Positions 31,532-38,062 of a stretch of 64,000 nt of DNA are shown here, in pieces. Each line of letters begins with the position of its first letter. Position 1 is the stretch's first letter. Origin of the DNA: an uncultured bacterium (GTDB lineage: Bacteria > Electryoneota > Electryoneia > Electryoneales > Electryoneaceae); assembly GCA_964552465.1 (NCBI GenBank), contig CAZKGR010000003.1:42726-106725 (forward strand), written 5' to 3'. Made by a program: the position numbers and the translations under genes. Below the pieces are notes generated by a model that searched no databases, was not told the DNA's origin, and was given only the letters and a program-made list of their open reading frames with translations.

Positions 31532-32146
31532 CTATTTGTAGAATTTGATCGAACAGCCGACCGATTTTGACTTCGTTGTAGTAATCGCCTGTCCGTTGGT
31601 ATTCGCTGTCAGCGCATCCTGTAGATACGTTTTTGACACACCGTCTGCATCTTGTGCGTTATCATCCAATGCGCCGTGGTAGATGAGAATTCCTTCTGCA
31701 TCGAATAGGAAAAATTCCGGAGTTCGTTTCGCACCAAACGCCAGCGCCAACTTCGATCCTTCATCAACGACATACGGGTACATCATGCCCGCGTTTTTCG
31801 CACGGTTCTGATTGGCCTCGAAGCCATCGTCCTTGTACTCGCTAGGATCATTGGGATTAATCGCGATGACACCATAGCCTGCTTTCATGGCTTCATTCGC
31901 AGTGGCAACGGTGCGTTCTTCCCATGCTTTCACATATGGACAATGATTGCAAGTGAAGATAACGAGGGTTCCCTTAGCGCCTGACACACTTGCAAGCGAT
32001 ACCGTGGACCCGTCGATATTTTTCATCTCGGTATCAACCATCGGCATTGCTGCACCGATTTCCAAACTACCGGCCAATCCACTTGGAGGGAGGATGCCTG
32101 TGATACCTATGATGACTGCAAGTAAAACCAAATTACGAACTTGCAT
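31532..32146 (-). CDS. secreted thioredoxin-fold protein (CxxC redoxin-like)
   Basis: Signal peptide. CNHCPYV CxxC motif in a thioredoxin-like context. 204 aa. Confidence 0.6.
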   Translation of the reverse strand: MQVRNLVLLAVIIGITGILPPSGLAGSLEIGAAMPMVDTEMKNIDGSTVSLASVSGAKGTLVIFTCNHCPYVKAWEERTVATANEAMKAGYGVIAINPNDPSEYKDDGFEANQNRAKNAGMMYPYVVDEGSKLALAFGAKRTPEFFLFDAEGILIYHGALDDNAQDADGVSKTYLQDALTANTNGQAITTTKSKSVGCSIKFYK

Positions 32147-32204
32147 GTGTTGTTCTCCGTTGCACTGTTACGATTATCTATTGGATTGTGTTTCTGCGCG
32201 ATAC

Positions 32205-32732
32205 TCACTCAAGATCGGTCAGGAGCTTACTGACTTCTTCGTAGGTCAGTTTTCCATCCCAGGTTTGAATTACGTTCGCTTCAGCTCCGAAAAGGATACT
32301 GAAGGGTAATGCACCTGACCAGTTTGGATCAATCTGATTAATGAACTCCTCATCCTGCTGGTTCTTGATATAGGACTCAAAGTTTACACCTAAAGATCCC
32401 AGAAAGTTCTCAGCCGTCTGGCTCTCGCGAGCAAAATCCGCTGAGACGAGGACCAGTTTGAATCCTCGATCCATGAATTCACTACGTAAACGCAATAGAT
32501 CCGGCATCTCCTCGCAGCAGGGCTGGCACCACGTCGCCCAAATATTTACCAGCACTGGACCGGAGTCGTGTCCCTTGACGATCTCCAGTATGTCAGCGGC
32601 AGACACTGGTTGGAGTTGTGGAGCTTGCTTCGTGTTCAACTCTTCAGCGCGCGCTGACAGTTGCATGATGGCGGACAGGATCAGTGACAGCATTGCGATC
32701 CTGAACGCCAATCTATAACTGGTATATGCCAA
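32205..32732 (-). CDS. TlpA family thiol-disulfide oxidoreductase
   Basis: Signal peptide. WATWCQPCCEEMP (WCxxC). 175 aa. Confidence 0.75.
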   Translation of the reverse strand: MAYTSYRLAFRIAMLSLILSAIMQLSARAEELNTKQAPQLQPVSAADILEIVKGHDSGPVLVNIWATWCQPCCEEMPDLLRLRSEFMDRGFKLVLVSADFARESQTAENFLGSLGVNFESYIKNQQDEEFINQIDPNWSGALPFSILFGAEANVIQTWDGKLTYEEVSKLLTDLE

Positions 32733-32890
32733 GAGAAAAGTCCGTTGGATGACCCGATATTTCCACGACTATATCTTACTTACTAGCTTTCAGCTATCAG
32801 AGTTTCCTGTTACTGTCTCTGAAGAGGCAGGGAGCCTGAATTCCTTTGATCATTTGGTACCATAGATGAATTTGGATACTCTCCTAACCT

Positions 32891-33817
32891 ATGCACCGAT
32901 TTCTCAGACTAATCCCGATTTTCGCAGCATTCGCTTACGCCTGGGCAGCAATATTCATTCGCTGGTCGGAGCCTGCTGGTCCGCTCGCAATTGCGTTCTA
33001 CCGGATGCTGGTCGCGACCGCTTTCTGGCTTCCATTTTTCATTTATCAGAAATCACAAGCCAAGCGCACTTCACCGACCAGGCGACAGTGGTGGTACATG
33101 TTGCTTGCGGGTGTTTTTCTCTGCCTGCATTTTGCCACCTGGACCACTTCACTGGTTTACACCTCAGTATCATCGGCAGTATTCCTGATCCTCACTCAAC
33201 CCATCATGGTCGCGGTTGCTGCACATTTCATCCTCGGTGAACGATTGACACTACTGCACTGGATTGCTCTTGTGTTTGCTGTTTTGGGTGCGGGGATAAT
33301 CTTCAATGGTGATATCTCGATATCCCGGGAGCATTTGTTCGGGGATGTTCTGGCTTTGATAGGCGCTTTCTTCTCAGGAGCATATTTTTTCATGGCGCGT
33401 TTGGCTCGTCCTGATACCCAGAATGGAACACCGGGAGTCTATCTCGCAACTTATCTGGCTCCTGTTTATGGATTATCAGCAGTCGGATTGTTGATCATCA
33501 CTCTGGCGTTTGGTGAATCGCTGGGGCCATTTCCGAGGGAGTCATGGCTCGCGATGCTGGGTTTGGGATTGATTCCGACAGTGATCGGACACAGCCTGTT
33601 CAATTACTCGCTCAAGCACTTAAGCGCCCTGTCAGTAAACATCGCGTTGGTGATTGAACCGGTAGGGGCGAGCATTCTGGCTATCTTTCTGTTCAGCGAA
33701 AGCCCGACTACAGGATTACTTGTTGGTTCACCATTTCTCATTGTCGCGGTGGTGATGATCTTTTTCCGTCCGCCGCTGATAAAATCTATCAGCTCTGTCA
33801 CCCCTCCAGCGAGTTGA
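32891..33817 (+). CDS. DMT superfamily (EamA-like) transporter
   Basis: 10 TM helices in two EamA-like halves. 308 aa. Confidence 0.7.
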   Translation: MHRFLRLIPIFAAFAYAWAAIFIRWSEPAGPLAIAFYRMLVATAFWLPFFIYQKSQAKRTSPTRRQWWYMLLAGVFLCLHFATWTTSLVYTSVSSAVFLILTQPIMVAVAAHFILGERLTLLHWIALVFAVLGAGIIFNGDISISREHLFGDVLALIGAFFSGAYFFMARLARPDTQNGTPGVYLATYLAPVYGLSAVGLLIITLAFGESLGPFPRESWLAMLGLGLIPTVIGHSLFNYSLKHLSALSVNIALVIEPVGASILAIFLFSESPTTGLLVGSPFLIVAVVMIFFRPPLIKSISSVTPPAS

Positions 33818-34004
33818 CATGCATGTCATACTTCTTTGGGTACATTCTAGAATAACTCACTGTTGACAGGGTATGGAACCGATTATTAGGATGTATTAAC
33901 TTTTCTCTTGCAGCAGTTCCACGCTCACGCTACCTTTGCGTCAACACTGATAATACCTCTTGCTGAACAGCATCTTCAGGTCAGGGATACACACGGATAC
34001 TCGG

Positions 34005-34985
34005 ATGTATACGAAAAAATGGCTGGTAGTCTTCTGCACATTCATAGTGGTGATTTTGGTCGGCTGTACCGGGCCGAAGAGCAGTGACGGAACTGTCTCG
34101 AGTGGAAAACTCTCAATCGTTGCTACCACGGCGATGATTGCTGATGTGGCGGTGAATGTTGGTGGAGATCATGTAGCGGTCACCGCCTTGATGGGACCGG
34201 GATCTGACCCCCACCTGTTCAACGCCAGCGCTGGGGATGTGAGCCGGATGAGGGATGCAGATTTGATCCTGCACAACGGTTTACATCTGGAAGGAAAACT
34301 TGACCAGGTTTTTGAGGCGGTGTCCAGGAGCAAAACGGTTATCGCTGTTGCGGAGCATGTCCCTGAGGATCGTCGACTAAGCAGCAATGACGATAGTCAA
34401 ATACCAGATCCTCACGTGTGGTTTGATGTCGCACGGTGGATATATGTCCTGGAAGCTGTGGAAGCAGCCCTGATCGAGCTTGATCCTGATCATCATGACT
34501 CATACTCCAGCAACTCTGCTGCGTATCGTGATTCGCTGGTGGCGCTGGATAAGTGGGTTCACGAAACTCTGGCAGTTATTCCAGATAACAGGCGTGCTCT
34601 GATCACAGCACATGACGCGTTTGCGTATTTTGCAGACGCGTACGACTTCGAAGTATATGGACTTCAGGGAATCAGTACCGTCAGTGAAGCGGGCACCGGG
34701 GATATGCGTCGTATCGCCAATCTGATTGTTGAGCGGGACATCCCGGCGATTTTCGTTGAGAGTTCTGTTCCGACAAAGGCCATCGAAGCGGTACAAGCGT
34801 CTGTGCAGGCCAAAGGACACACTGTCACAGTTGGCGGCGAGTTGTTCAGTGACGCTATGGGATTACCAGGCACACCGGAAGGAACTTATATCGGGATGGT
34901 ACGTCACAATGTCCAAACGATAATGAACAGTCTGACCACTGAAACGGAACGATCAAAGCAGGATGAAATACATGTCATTGACTGA
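34005..34985 (+). CDS. metal ABC transporter substrate-binding lipoprotein (Zn/Mn TroA/ZnuA family)
   Basis: Lipobox LVGCTG. ZnuA/TroA-like fold (His-containing metal site region, GPGSDPHLF). 326 aa. Confidence 0.8.
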   Translation: MYTKKWLVVFCTFIVVILVGCTGPKSSDGTVSSGKLSIVATTAMIADVAVNVGGDHVAVTALMGPGSDPHLFNASAGDVSRMRDADLILHNGLHLEGKLDQVFEAVSRSKTVIAVAEHVPEDRRLSSNDDSQIPDPHVWFDVARWIYVLEAVEAALIELDPDHHDSYSSNSAAYRDSLVALDKWVHETLAVIPDNRRALITAHDAFAYFADAYDFEVYGLQGISTVSEAGTGDMRRIANLIVERDIPAIFVESSVPTKAIEAVQASVQAKGHTVTVGGELFSDAMGLPGTPEGTYIGMVRHNVQTIMNSLTTETERSKQDEIHVID

Positions 34986-35844
34986 CAACAGGGAGTCAGA
35001 AACGTCTCAACATGATCAGGGCGCTCAATCGCTCGCGGTCACTGTGAACGATCTCACGGTTGCTTATCGCAGCAAGCCTGTGCTCTGGGACATTGATCTG
35101 AATGTCCCATCTGGCGTGTTGATGGCGATTCTCGGACCTAATGGTGCAGGGAAGACCACGCTGCTCAAAGCCATGCTGGGATTGATCCCACCCGCCGCTG
35201 GCCATGTGAAGATTCTCGATCGGTCCTACCATGAAGTCCACAAGCGCGTCGGTTACGTTCCACAACGTGGCAGCGTGGACTGGGACTTTCCGACGACAGT
35301 GCTCGATGTAGTCACCATGGGCGCATACGGTCGTATTGGATGGTTCAAGCGCCCCAGTAAGACGGATAGGGGGGACGCTCTCGCTGCACTCGGACGAGTT
35401 GGAATGGATGCCTTCGCCAACCGTCAGATCAGCCAGCTTTCTGGAGGGCAGCAGCAACGGGTGTTTCTCGCCCGCGCGTTGCTCCAGAACGCTGATATCT
35501 ATTTCATGGACGAACCGTTTCAGGGCGTAGATGCAACCACCGAGCGTGCGATTATTGCAATCTTGCATGAAATCAAGGACGCCGGTAAAACAGTGATAGT
35601 AGTTCATCACGACTTGCAGACCGTGGAAGAATACTTCGATTGGGCATTGCTGCTGAATGTGCGCGCGATTGCCAGCGGACCGGTGAACGACGTGTTTACC
35701 GCTGATTTATTACGCCAGACTTACGGTGGCAAGATCAGTTTCATCGAAGACATGCAGCGGTACCGTCTAGGTGAGGATGAAGCGGCAGTTCGCTCAAGTG
35801 CGCACGATTTACCACCTTGGGAAGAGTGGGGGAACGAAGGGTGA
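34972..35844 (+). CDS. metal ABC transporter ATP-binding protein
   Basis: Walker A GPNGAGKTT. Signature LSGGQQQRVFLARAL. Walker B IYFMDEPF. Confidence 0.9.
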   Translation: MSLTDNRESETSQHDQGAQSLAVTVNDLTVAYRSKPVLWDIDLNVPSGVLMAILGPNGAGKTTLLKAMLGLIPPAAGHVKILDRSYHEVHKRVGYVPQRGSVDWDFPTTVLDVVTMGAYGRIGWFKRPSKTDRGDALAALGRVGMDAFANRQISQLSGGQQQRVFLARALLQNADIYFMDEPFQGVDATTERAIIAILHEIKDAGKTVIVVHHDLQTVEEYFDWALLLNVRAIASGPVNDVFTADLLRQTYGGKISFIEDMQRYRLGEDEAAVRSSAHDLPPWEEWGNEG

Positions 35845-36953
35845 ACCCGCTCGAGTGGCTGACAGACTACACTCTGCGCACCGTAATTCTCGGTTCGGCG
35901 ATCCTTGGCGCTACCAGTGGTGCGCTGGGTGCGTTTGCCGTGCTCAGGCGTCAAGCGTTACTCGGGGACGCAGTCGCTCACGCCACACTACCTGGCATTG
36001 TACTTGCATTTGTGCTGACTGGCTCGAAAGCACCGCTGATCCTGCTGATTGGCGCGGCATTGACCGGTTGGTTTGCCACCCTGCTGATTCTGCTGATACT
36101 TCGACAGACACGTATTCGTGAGGATGCCGCGCTGGGCATTTCGCTCTCAGTTTTCTTCGGACTGGGGATCATGTTGCTCTCGTGGGTGCAGAAATTACCA
36201 GTTGCCAACAAGGCGGGTTTGGATCGTTTTCTGTTTGGACAGGCGGCTGCGTTAATGGAGGCGGATGTGATCATGATGAGCGTATTTGCGGTGCTCATCC
36301 TGGTTTCAGTAGTGCTGTTCTGGAAAGAGTTCAAGCTGTTGTCATTCAATCCTGAGTACGGATCAACGCTCGGCCTGCCGATGCGTCGGCTGGATATCGT
36401 GCTCACGGGTTTGATAGTGGTTTCGATTGTGCTCGGCTTGCAGATGGTTGGCGTGGTGCTGATGAGCGCAATGTTGCTCGCACCAGCGGCTGCCGCACGT
36501 CAATGGACTGATCGCCTGGCTGTTATGGTACTGCTTTCCGCTGGATTTGGTGCGGTGGCCGGTACGACTGGCACCATGCTCAGCGCAACGATTGAACGTC
36601 TGCCCACCGGTCCGTCGATCATCGTCGTCGTCAGTGTGATTGTTGTGGTATCTCTGCTGTTTGCGCCAGCCCGCGGTCTGTTCTGGGAATGGAGACGTCG
36701 GTTTGCACAGCGTCGTCGCTTTGCTAGCGAAACGGCGTTGGTCAATCTGTATCAGTTGGCAGTTCAGCATGAGACTGTGCAACATCCTCACGACATTAAA
36801 GCAATTGAAGTGATGATGGGGGAACGCGCGACCGCAGCGTTGAAAAAGTTGCGGCAGCAGGGTTGGGTGGATTCAAGCGATGATCAGTTGTGGACGCTTA
36901 CGGAAAGTGGTGAGCAACGGGCCCGGAAACTGATATTGCGGAAGATGCACTGA
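35841..36953 (+). CDS. metal ABC transporter permease (ABC-3 family) with C-terminal DtxR-like winged-helix extension
   Basis: ABC-3 permease core. The roughly 85-aa C-terminal tail LTESGEQRARKLILRKMH resembles the DtxR N-terminal HTH (MTPTGRTLATAVMRKHRL). GTG start overlaps the upstream stop. Confidence 0.75.
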   Translation: MNPLEWLTDYTLRTVILGSAILGATSGALGAFAVLRRQALLGDAVAHATLPGIVLAFVLTGSKAPLILLIGAALTGWFATLLILLILRQTRIREDAALGISLSVFFGLGIMLLSWVQKLPVANKAGLDRFLFGQAAALMEADVIMMSVFAVLILVSVVLFWKEFKLLSFNPEYGSTLGLPMRRLDIVLTGLIVVSIVLGLQMVGVVLMSAMLLAPAAAARQWTDRLAVMVLLSAGFGAVAGTTGTMLSATIERLPTGPSIIVVVSVIVVVSLLFAPARGLFWEWRRRFAQRRRFASETALVNLYQLAVQHETVQHPHDIKAIEVMMGERATAALKKLRQQGWVDSSDDQLWTLTESGEQRARKLILRKMH

Positions 36954-38062
36954 TGAATACCGCTTACGTTGAAATCCTGATCACAGCCATTCTGGCGACC
37001 ACGGCTTGCGTAATACCGGGTGTATTTCTCGTGTTACGTCGAACGGCGATGCTCACCGATGCGATTTCACACTCGGTTCTATTCGGAATCGTGATCGTAT
37101 TTCTGCTAGTGCAGGATTTGACTCACCCAGCACTCATCATCGGTGCAGCGTTGACTGGATTATTGACCGTTGGGCTGGTCGAATTGCTGAATCGAACCGG
37201 GCGGGTGCATACGGATACGGCTATAGGATTGGTATTTCCGTTGCTCTTCAGCCTCGCAGTTATCATGATCACGCGATATGCGGGCAATGTTCACCTCGAT
37301 ACTGATTCCGTTCTCTCAGGGGAGATCGCGTTTGTTCCCTTTCACCGATTAGTGGTGGGTGGGGTGGACATAGGGCCGAAACCAGCGTGGGTACTGGGTG
37401 GTGTGCTGCTGATGAACGCGCTGTTCGTCACGTTGTTCTACAAGGAGCTCAAGGTTTCGACGTTTGATCCGGAACTGGCCGCCGCGCAGGGATTTCATCC
37501 AAAGACCATTCACTACGCGCTAATGACCCTCGTGTCGTTGACTGTGGTGGCAGCGTTTGAGACGGTCGGGAGCCTGCTGGTGATCGCATTACTAATCGTC
37601 CCGGCCGCGACTGCGTTTCTGTTGACCAACCGACTCGCTGTGATGTTACTACTGGGTGTTGCAGCCGGTGCTGTTTCAGCGATAGGAGGATTCGCTACGG
37701 CTGTCCAACTGGATGTGTCGATATCGGGGAGCATTGTCGTTGCAGGCGGAGTACTATTCCTGCTGGTGCTGATGCTGGCACCGAAACGTGGATTGCTCTC
37801 GATTCTGCGGATGCGCAGACGGCAACGGGTTGATTTTGCTGGCAACATGCTTGCGGTTCATTTGCTCAACCACCAGCATTCCGGTGATCGCAGTGAATCC
37901 TGCACTCCCGAGAATTTGTCGCAGTCGTTGAATTGGTCAGTCGCATATGCTGACGGTGCATGCCGGAATCTGCAGGCCCGACGTCTGGTATCTGATGTTA
38001 GTGGTAAGATGCAACTGACTGACAAGGGAACTGAAGTCGCTCGGGCGACAATGATGCTGTAG
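36953..38062 (+). CDS. metal ABC transporter permease (ABC-3 family) with C-terminal DtxR-like extension
   Basis: Second permease. C-terminal tail carries LTDKGTEVARATMML, similar to the DtxR HTH. Confidence 0.75.
   Translation: MNTAYVEILITAILATTACVIPGVFLVLRRTAMLTDAISHSVLFGIVIVFLLVQDLTHPALIIGAALTGLLTVGLVELLNRTGRVHTDTAIGLVFPLLFSLAVIMITRYAGNVHLDTDSVLSGEIAFVPFHRLVVGGVDIGPKPAWVLGGVLLMNALFVTLFYKELKVSTFDPELAAAQGFHPKTIHYALMTLVSLTVVAAFETVGSLLVIALLIVPAATAFLLTNRLAVMLLLGVAAGAVSAIGGFATAVQLDVSISGSIVVAGGVLFLLVLMLAPKRGLLSILRMRRRQRVDFAGNMLAVHLLNHQHSGDRSESCTPENLSQSLNWSVAYADGACRNLQARRLVSDVSGKMQLTDKGTEVARATMML

Follow-up and report, generated by a model that had tools for sequence, protein, structure and literature searches.

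Bacterial metal homeostasis and virulence depend heavily on cluster A-I metal importers (Psa, Mnt, Znu, Tro). In Chlamydia, the permease YtgC is approximately 450 aa long and, to our knowledge, is the only one to carry the fused domain YtgR. YtgR is described as a DtxR-like repressor that is complete and retains the conserved residues for metal coordination; it is cleaved off and binds the ytg promoter (PMC5599777). The zinc-sensing domain of E. coli ZnuC (CxxxHxxCC) represents a cytoplasmic metal sensor built into the same transporter family. ZnuC, like MetN/ModC, gives an ABC importer of this type a cytoplasmic appendage that binds the transported substrate and locks the transporter, which constitutes post-translational feedback (PMC12236471). 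In the Treponema troABCDR operon, TroC is short (298/304 aa) and TroD long (367/366 aa), and the DtxR-family protein TroR stands alone (PMC2628430 Table 1).

The locus described here lies in a 64-kb stretch of DNA that was analysed as a whole (the window) and consists of four adjoining, overlapping genes, all on the + strand. The first, starting with ATG (34005..34985), encodes a solute-binding lipoprotein (SBP) of the ZnuA/TroA family (PF01297, E 3e-79), whose N-terminus MYTKKWLVVFCTFIVVILVGC was recognized as a lipoprotein signal by direct reading of the sequence. It is followed by an ABC ATPase of 290 aa (34972..35844; PF00005, E 1e-30), permease 1 of 370 aa (35841-36953), and permease 2 of 369 aa (36953-38062); public gene calls on the same sequence have identical lengths (326/290/370/369 aa). 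Both permeases belong to the ABC-3 family (PsaC/ZnuB/TroCD type), as indicated by PF00950 scores above the gathering cut-off of 20.1, by solved homologues, and by an operon that includes a cluster A-I ZnuA-family SBP and an ATPase. The transmembrane domain of permease 1 (residues 1-277, 35841..36671, + strand) scores 234.6 bits, the match covering residues 18-282 of a 378-aa TTG-start ORF, that is, about 10-274 of the 370-aa protein; that of permease 2 (residues 1-274, 36953..37774, + strand) scores 157.6 bits over residues 7-275. Permease 1 also matches PsaC (E 1.3e-31) and ZnuB (E 2.4e-18) over residues 12-278. Judged by sequence, the importer is a Mn/Zn/Fe-type, TroCD-like heterodimeric ABC-3 system. 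Its ATPase contains no cysteines and consequently lacks a ZnuC-type CxxxHxxCC zinc-sensing domain, so it cannot carry that sensor.

Beyond the ABC-3 domain, each permease continues for about 90 residues, since PF00950 ends at approximately 274/275 and the alignments with PsaC (282 aa) and ZnuB (260 aa) are confined to residues 12-278. The extension of about 85 aa per permease reported in a first-pass annotation is thus real. Tail 1 comprises residues 278-370 of permease 1 (36672..36953, + strand) and tail 2 residues 275-369 of permease 2 (37775..38062, + strand), the last residues of the two proteins being LTESGEQRARKLILRKMH and LTDKGTEVARATMML, respectively. Structure prediction yields folded winged-helix domains rather than disordered linkers. 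Both tails display the winged helix-turn-helix topology H1-H2-H3-wing followed by H4, and both proteins end about 10-15 residues past the wing. The AF2 model of tail 2 has a pLDDT of 77.0, and no disordered linker is predicted in either tail, the lowest 10-residue blocks (pLDDT 73 and 60) being located at the juxtamembrane ends. H1 of each tail is predicted as a single helix that starts just past the membrane, with no flexible linker; in tail 1, a basic juxtamembrane helix is continuous with it. The two tails match each other in hhalign (96.4%, E 1e-9) and are paralogous winged-helix domains of about 70 residues, with boundaries, fold, and paralogy all computed directly. They presumably face the cytoplasm.

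The first-pass annotation also described the tails as DtxR-like. The winged helix stands, and the N-terminal domain of DtxR/MntR appears to be its best specific match; the similarity, also computed directly, is remote. When the tails were compared with 41 real DtxR-family sequences, hhalign gave 90.0%, 85.8%, and 92.2%, and the overall range was 85.8-94.7% for the DtxR family, 44-74% for MarR, and 0.4-9% for Fur. Among the PDB sequence matches of tail 2, 24 of 27 are DtxR-family proteins (DtxR, IdeR, or MntR), all of them sub-threshold (E ≥ 0.05); the top matches of tail 1 are the MarR-family proteins ZitR/AdcR. Single-sequence PDB searches returned only a non-significant 5zr4 for tail 1 (E 0.67) and no match for tail 2. 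In Foldseek, superposition on tail 2 gives 1.7 A over 72 columns for DtxR and 1.9 A over 68 columns, with 25% identity, for DR2539. Neither tail has a PDB match at E ≤ 0.001 in Foldseek, so their family cannot be assigned from structure alone. The Fe_dep_repress model PF01325, which had been proposed as a check, is unmatched by either window tail even at E ≤ 10; it is matched by 4 of 35 tail-1 homologues (best E 0.033) and is outside the 25 most-matched families for tail 2. HVO_A0261_N is the commonest Pfam match (21/35, best 9.5e-6, below its cut-off).

The tails share with DtxR, IdeR, MntR, and TroR the H1-H2-H3-wing-H4 topology, with closest superpositions of 1.7-2.7 A, as well as several motifs. 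E..L..LY.L in H1 aligns with DYLK.IY.L, the "..G.V" end of H3 also aligns, and the "LT..G...A" motif already noted in the first pass corresponds in DtxR to the third wing strand and the beginning of H4. However, the tails remain below Pfam thresholds, they are anchored in the membrane, and the polar start of the recognition helix (S/T-x-S/T-V-T/S) is replaced. They also lack the SH3/FeoA domain and the helical dimerisation/metal-binding domain PF02742, which houses the regulatory metal sites and which YtgC-YtgR does have; Pfam searches of the window tails and their homologues gave no PF02742 match. On this sequence evidence, the most probable ancestor of the tail domain is a DtxR/MntR-type N-terminal domain, the relationship being remote. 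Like YtgC-YtgR, the locus has an ABC-3 permease with a C-terminal, presumably cytoplasmic, DtxR-related winged helix and an operon of the order SBP-ATPase-permease-permease (PMC5599777). It differs in that each tail consists only of a winged helix of about 70 residues plus one helix rather than a complete DtxR-like repressor, the ligand positions differ, no linker is predicted, and both permeases carry the domain.

The most distinctive feature of the tails is a set of conserved histidines and glutamates, computed directly from homologue alignments, which the predicted structures place where H1 ends, in the H1-H2 loop, and in H2, spaced i, i+4. Tail 1 has H310 (100% conserved), H315 (88%), and H317 (100%) in the H1-H2 loop, and W351 and G357 in and just after the wing. 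In tail 2, H303 and H307 (i, i+4; both 100%) at the end of H1 are accompanied in the family by E308 (84%), E316 (94%), H321 (90%), and H325 (90%), and W328 is invariant. In 80 further species loci, H303, H307, E308, and E316 of tail 2 are present in 80/80 and both H2 histidines in 72/80, while H310 and H317 are kept wherever tail 1 is detected. These positions do not look like core packing and appear ligand-like. In the window's own clade, tail 2 has conserved E315 and C317, with S, N, and S in place of the family residues E316, H321, and H325; with three family ligands replaced, the putative tail-2 site of this clade is remodelled or weakened.

The reading that we prefer, with a probability of roughly 0.45, is that the tails are built-in cytoplasmic metal-sensing or regulatory modules and not the transcriptional repressor of the operon. 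Imported Mn, Zn, or Fe would bind the conserved His/Glu(/Cys) clusters: in tail 1 a putative site H310-x4-H315-x-H317, and in tail 2 H303-x3-H307 together with E316 and H321-x3-H325 in most of the family, the second half being replaced by E315 and C317 in the window's clade. A single uninterrupted basic helix is predicted to connect each tail with the last transmembrane helix. Binding would induce a conformational change that slows or locks the transporter (trans-inhibition), functionally like the zinc-sensing domain of E. coli ZnuC or the regulatory C-terminal domains of MetN/ModC. Both metal binding and any effect on transport are inferred. ZnuC and MetN/ModC are proposed here purely as functional analogues of tails whose own function is inferred; their domains reside on the ATPase and have unrelated folds and other motifs, whereas those of the window are winged helices on the permeases.

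The His clusters could also serve another purpose than metal sensing. Many winged-helix domains are protein-protein modules, and the tails may be purely structural or interaction modules that dock on the ATPase dimer, stabilise the heterodimer, or recruit a stand-alone DtxR or a metallochaperone. Such a role is possible but doubtful. It would agree with the predicted rigid attachment to the membrane domain, with the invariant W351 and W328, which suggest an interface, and with fold and Pfam matches that include methyltransferase dimerisation domains, HemN_C, EAP30/Vps36, eS10, and eS19. However, it leaves unexplained why three to four histidines plus glutamates that do not resemble core packing are 84-100% conserved across phyla, and the ATPase extensions, as possible partners of the tails, differ in length among relatives (ATPases of 256-290 aa). 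The clusters, predicted to sit on a rigid helix close to the membrane, have also been considered as a cytoplasmic site that accepts metal leaving the translocation pathway and hands it on to cytoplasmic ligands, which would be a role in transport rather than regulation, in line with the acidic residues at the cytoplasmic exit of PsaC that are thought to drive release (PMC8346216). We regard this as improbable, since the well-studied PsaC and ZnuB function without any tail, tail 1 is absent in some lineages, and the window's clade has a remodelled ligand set.

Among the matches listed, tails are conserved in 120/120 homologues of permease 1 and 119/120 of permease 2, the exception being a 225-aa fragment, and the full-length homologues measure 366-402 aa with 92-100% query cover; the extensions are thus no accident of the window's copy. 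These searches used full-length permease queries; a tail-only word-index search gave no matches. Short matches from an exhaustive profile search were ruled out as stand-alone domains, as they are C-terminal permease fragments. Tailed homologues of each permease number in the thousands across many phyla, and a double fusion that had been called unusual is instead a widespread, conserved architecture found in hundreds of species, of which the window's copy is an ordinary member. Cultivable carriers include Caldithrix abyssi and Rhodocaloribacter litoris. A sample of 80 species loci was collected by a GTDB scan with a tight 9-sequence tail-2 alignment, which biases it towards consensus-like tails; both tails occur in 61 of these loci and only the second in 12, counts that are not phylogenetically independent because Poribacteria are over-represented. 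Tail 1 has been lost from these 12 loci. By length, Treponema troABCDR, itself a heterodimeric ABC-3 system, shows the same layout as these 12 (a tail-less permease 1, a tailed permease 2, and a DtxR gene), and the extra residues of TroD (about 65) may, by length alone, be this winged-helix domain.

Distribution and co-occurrence with DtxR genes and operators were likewise computed directly. In 43 of the 80 loci, again not independent samples, a gene for a full-length DtxR-family regulator lies nearby, in most cases at the head of the operon, whereas troR is the last gene of its operon; YtgC-YtgR differs from the family in this respect too, as operons related to the window's often encode a separate full-length DtxR repressor. 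Where a tailed-pair locus is preceded by 6 kb or more of sequence, such a regulator is encoded in 30 of 50 cases. The tails are therefore likelier to be sensors than the operon's repressor, since hundreds of species have the tailed pair, and in many of them a full-length DtxR gene is its neighbour. The earlier remark that a stand-alone repressor is missing holds for the operon itself, which encodes none, but it does not describe a trait of the family. In the whole 64-kb window, DtxR- and Fur-family HMM searches found no such gene, the sole DtxR-HMM match being permease 1 itself (E 0.0013).

Transcription in the family would be controlled by this separate repressor acting on a conserved palindromic operator. 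The palindrome AATTTAGGCATGCCTAAATT is located just upstream of the dtxR gene in 32 of 45 loci, also heads operons without dtxR, and is 25-fold enriched upstream of SBP genes. Upstream of the window's SBP gene, where a palindrome search had been suggested, lies a weak, half-conserved dyad, and the window contains no good copy of the family operator. This dyad, TTAGGATGTATTAA (33886..33899, no strand assigned), is a degenerate remnant of AATTTAGGCATGCCTAAATT that scores 3.2 bits, whereas real sites have a median of 24.3, and that ranks 6th among the 63,970 positions of the window. Two relatives (L003 and L006) have exact TTAG-N6-CTAA dyads that align with it, and it adjoins or overlaps promoter elements, a sigma-70-like match TTGACA-18-TAGGAT (33863-33892) overlapping it. 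A perfect 14-bp palindrome TGACATGCATGTCA (33815-33828) was considered as an operator and dropped, as neither of the two closest relatives conserves it. Elsewhere in the window it has a single near match, a site with 2 mismatches that lies within the ATPase gene, as could arise by chance (8 of 100 shuffles). In the window's organism, the repressor, if any, would lie outside the 64 kb, and the operator would have eroded.

Alternatively, the tails may be DNA-binding domains that repress their own operon promoter when metal is plentiful, either as a membrane-tethered pseudo-dimer brought together by the permease heterodimer or after proteolytic release as in YtgC-YtgR. The fold, with DtxR/MntR as its nearest family, is compatible with this, as is the H3/wing region of tail 2, which is as basic (+2.6) as that of real DtxR and has conserved R335, R338, and R360, making DNA binding by tail 2 possible. 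The absence of a nearby repressor gene leaves room for self-repression in this lineage, the dyad at 33886-33899 lies at the promoter, and YtgC-YtgR provides a precedent, with permease-repressor fusions reported in 11 phyla (PMC5599777). Nevertheless, PF01325 is unmatched, a dimerisation/metal-binding domain is missing, and more than half of the related operons have their own full-length DtxR repressor with a matching operator, while the window has no good copy of that operator. Furthermore, no linker or disorder is predicted at which cleavage could occur, H1 being continuous with the juxtamembrane helix, and tail 1 is dispensable in 12 loci. The exposed recognition-helix positions of tail 1 are variable and often acidic, its wing loop is acidic or neutral, and its net charge from H3 through the start of H4 is low (+0.6, versus +2.7 in real DtxR regulators), features that argue against its reading DNA. 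The comparative evidence thus leans against transport-coupled autoregulation by DNA binding, which we consider unlikely. It is more improbable still that the two winged helices, side by side in the permease heterodimer and metal-loaded via their own His clusters, form a membrane-anchored pseudo-dimeric repressor on promoter DNA. If true, a single complex would tie transport to operon transcription with no soluble regulator involved, at least in lineages without a nearby DtxR gene, such as that of the window.

The tail domain is a conserved, His-rich winged helix carried by one permease or by both; hundreds of species from many phyla have it, and no Pfam model covers it. No description of it was found in the searchable literature, and nothing relevant on HVO_A0261 or on tailed Tro/Mnt permeases. 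Post-translational control of cluster A-I importers has so far barely been described, the ZnuC zinc-sensing domain dating from 2025. If the tails bind DNA, they would represent a new kind of membrane-tethered autoregulator. If they are cytoplasmic metal sensors, as we prefer, they would constitute a second, independent solution to the feedback control of these importers and a case of a DNA-binding fold recruited into a transporter.

The metal importer is encoded by a four-gene operon on the + strand, with start and stop codons overlapping between genes: a solute-binding lipoprotein (SBP) of the ZnuA/TroA family (34005-34985), a 290-aa ABC ATPase (34972-35844) and the ABC-3 permeases 1 (370 aa, 35841-36953) and 2 (369 aa, 36953-38062). 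Gene lengths are identical in public gene calls for the same sequence. In both permeases the ABC-3 Pfam match stops near residue 275, and the homologues of solved structure, PsaC (282 aa) and ZnuB (260 aa), can be aligned only over residues 12-278; each permease therefore possesses about 90 additional C-terminal residues (tail 1 and tail 2). This agrees with the extension of about 85 aa described on both proteins by the first-pass annotation, whose cited motifs are the final residues of the two permeases. The ATPase, too, is extended, both at its N-terminus and, by an acidic stretch containing Trp (...HDLPPWEEWGNEG), at its C-terminus; its length is 256-290 aa across relatives, and the window's copy is some 40-50 aa longer than PsaB or ZnuC. 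Upstream lie a divergent pair of genes for thioredoxin-like/AhpC-TSA redoxins (31532-32146 and 32205-32732, - strand) and then a gene for an EamA-family transporter (32891-33817, + strand), an arrangement (31532-33817) kept in the two closest related loci, L003 and L006. The product of the gene directly downstream on the same strand (38167-38808), a 213-aa protein that appears to have a signal peptide, matched no Pfam family; synteny of this gene is limited to the closest relatives (L003, L006 and L007).

Full-length searches at E <= 1e-10 recovered 7,941 homologues of permease 1 and 7,277 of permease 2. Of the 120 matches listed for each permease, all 120 for permease 1 and 119 for permease 2 (the exception is a 225-aa fragment) are 366-402 aa long with 92-100% query coverage, and they belong to Rhodothermales, Calditrichota, Zixibacteria, Gemmatimonadota, Chloroflexota and Deltaproteobacteria. 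Tailed permeases are thus abundant across these groups, the duplicated fusion cannot be called unusual as initially claimed, and the window's copy is an ordinary member of a widespread family rather than a singular event. Tail 1 and tail 2 are also homologues of one another (hhalign 96.4%, E 1e-9, 91 columns). When 1.84 billion cluster representatives were searched exhaustively by profile, the tail-1 domain was confined to the C-terminus of permease-sized proteins or their C-terminal fragments, and no free-standing copy was seen. The domain has no Pfam family, its carriers are named only "metal ABC transporter permease" in the sources, and no description of it was found in the searchable literature.

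AlphaFold2 produced confident models from the tail alignments (pLDDT 86.9 for tail 1 and 77.0 for tail 2) with a common topology: a long helix H1 beginning immediately past the membrane, a loop, H2, H3, a beta-hairpin wing and H4. Foldseek returned no match at E <= 0.001 for either tail; the tightest superpositions of tail 2 are with the DtxR family, namely DtxR (1.7 A over 72 columns), DR2539 (1.9 A, 68 columns, 25% identity) and E. coli MntR (TMq 0.66), whereas MarR matches rank slightly higher yet superpose at 6-8 A. These models and superpositions identify both tails as folded winged helix-turn-helix domains, not disordered linkers. Each is attached to the membrane part by a single uninterrupted, very basic helix, with no linker predicted.

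The DtxR-like character ascribed to the tails is seen in the winged-helix fold and is probable at profile level, but the tails failed the Pfam check that the first-pass annotation proposed: PF01325 matched neither window tail even at E <= 10, was matched by just 4 of the 35 homologues of tail 1 (best E 0.033), and does not figure among the 25 most-matched Pfam families for tail 2. The commonest Pfam matches are other winged-helix families, including HemN_C and MarR_2, every one below cut-off; HVO_A0261_N was matched in 21 of 35 (best E 9.5e-6, below cut-off). Searched against all PDB sequences, the tail-2 profile gave 27 matches at E < 10, of which 24 are MntR, IdeR, DtxR or relatives (all E >= 0.05), those in the DtxR family sharing one register (DtxR residues ~28-77); tail-1 matches are mixed (ZitR/AdcR, several DtxR-family proteins, eS10 and eS19). 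Local hhalign comparisons used 41 real and four typed DtxR-family sequences with MarR and Fur controls, the typed DtxR, MarR and Fur sets having been entered by hand, which weakens the comparison; in that order they scored 90.0, 88.7, 67.6 and 9.2% for tail 1, 85.8, 94.7, 43.8 and 0.4% for tail 2, and 92.2, 95.5, 73.6 and 2.3% for both tails. The tail 1 alignment with real DtxR sequences spans 70 columns and includes H1 ("DYLKaIY.L" against "aVL.DLY.LA"). By sequence profile, the DtxR family appears to be the best specific relative, and a DtxR/MntR-type origin is probable but not secure. Both tails stop 10-15 residues past the wing, and the DtxR dimerisation/metal-binding domain, with its regulatory metal sites, is absent from both.

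That the tails bind DNA and autoregulate the operon, as the first-pass annotation proposed, would suit a winged helix, and the net charge from H3 to the start of H4 in tail 2 (+2.6) is close to that in real DtxR regulators (+2.7). In tail 1 it is +0.6, and residues at the exposed sites of the recognition helix and in the wing loop vary and are often acidic. We consider the proposal improbable. When one genome per GTDB species was scanned with just two narrow peptide patterns, tail-2 relatives turned up in 345 species, and 80 loci, from Poribacteria, Chloroflexota, Actinomycetota, Desulfobulbaceae, Planctomycetota, Gemmatimonadota and Zixibacteria, were kept and annotated with HMMs built for this analysis. 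The permease directly upstream bears tail 1 in 61 of them and could not be judged in 7; in the other 12 (L023, L039, L047, L053, L054, L058, L068, L077-L080 and L083, mostly Poribacteria), it ends 20-35 residues past the basic juxtamembrane helix without a winged helix while tail 2 is kept, so the two tails are not an obligate pair. The window's operon indeed lacks a stand-alone repressor, and no DtxR- or Fur-family gene occurs within the whole 64 kb. In 43 of the 80 loci, however, and in 30 of 50 tailed-pair loci having at least 6 kb of upstream sequence, a full-length DtxR-family regulator (~217-260 aa) is encoded within 9 kb, its gene usually standing first in the operon, immediately before the SBP gene; a Fur-family gene was found in two surveyed loci.

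A TTAG-N6-CTAA palindrome occurs upstream of SBP genes at 0.88 per kb and elsewhere at 0.035, a 25-fold enrichment; it lies just upstream of dtxR in 32 of 45 dtxR-containing loci and upstream of the SBP gene in three more. Its consensus over 55 unique sites is AATTTAGGcATgCCTAAATT, and the co-encoded DtxR-family regulator presumably uses it as operator; the half-site resembles the DtxR/IdeR box, with different spacing. The 20-22 bp palindrome is conserved in many phyla, in loci within L009-L087 (e.g., L034:5080, L011:2001 and 2016, L063:3310), immediately ahead of whichever gene, dtxR or SBP, opens the tailed operon. Since one operator heads tailed operons with and without dtxR, the simplest reading of these sequences is that transcription in the family is under the control of a canonical soluble DtxR-family repressor and that the tails do something else. 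In the window itself this operator is eroded: no position matches it at more than 7.2 bits, whereas real sites have a median score of 24.3. The palindrome sought upstream of the SBP gene survives only as TTAGGATGTATTAA (33886-33899; 3.2 bits, rank 6 of 63,970 positions), the best promoter-region match; the two closest relatives each have an exact dyad at the aligned position. Another palindrome, TGACATGCATGTCA (33815-33828), is perfect over 14 bp and shares bases with the stop codon of the EamA gene; relatives with 84% and 78% protein identity do not conserve it, and it has no second good copy elsewhere in the window. A block shared with relatives (33907-33938, CTTGCA-N17-CTAccTTTG) fits a Bacteroidota-type promoter (-33 TTG / -7 TAnnTTTG); a sigma-70-like TTGACA-18-TAGGAT (33863-33892) is an alternative.

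Conserved His and Glu residues (84-100%) lie at the H1 end, in the H1-H2 loop and in H2 with i, i+4 spacing, and are retained with or without an adjacent dtxR. In the tail alignments, H310, H317, W351 and G357 of tail 1 are 100% conserved and H315 88%; in tail 2, H303, H307 and W328 reach 100%, E316 94%, H321, H325 and R360 90%, and E308 84%. We favour, tentatively (probability about 0.45), a metal-sensing or regulatory role, in which imported metal would bind these clusters and thereby feed back on the transporter. The tails are probably cytoplasmic, given the strongly basic juxtamembrane stretch and the expression and purification of PsaC as a C-terminal GFP fusion (PMC8346216), taken to imply a cytoplasmic C-terminus. 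The zinc-sensing domain of E. coli ZnuC, a cytoplasmic appendage of the ATPase with a CxxxHxxCC motif that binds the transported metal and locks the transporter, is a direct precedent for metal sensing in the same transporter family (PMC12236471); the window's ATPase has no cysteines and therefore cannot carry a ZnuC-type sensor. Purely structural or interaction modules, for which a folded domain joined rigidly to the membrane part might serve, are rather unlikely in light of the conserved clusters, and a metal hand-off site, which could use the same residues, is very unlikely. In the five-member clade that the window's permease 2 forms with homologues P0121-P0124, E316, H321 and H325 of the ligand region (residues 303-328, 37859-37936) are replaced by S, N and S, while H303, H307, E315 and C317 are conserved in all five. 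This pattern suggests that the site has been remodelled rather than simply lost, possibly towards a softer, more Zn/Fe-like ligand set.

Permease-repressor fusions such as Chlamydia YtgC-YtgR have been reported in 11 phyla; their fused part is a complete DtxR-like repressor, released by cleavage (PMC5599777). In contrast, the tails described here are shorter, have their own ligand set, lack the dimerisation/metal-binding domain of YtgR, and occur on both permeases or on the second alone, often alongside a separate DtxR repressor. The Treponema tro operon encodes TroC (298/304 aa), TroD (367/366 aa) and the soluble repressor TroR (PMC2628430, Table 1), a layout that matches the tailed family by length. 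Judged by length, TroD may carry the same tail, in which case the domain would be present in a classic, experimentally studied operon that also has TroR.
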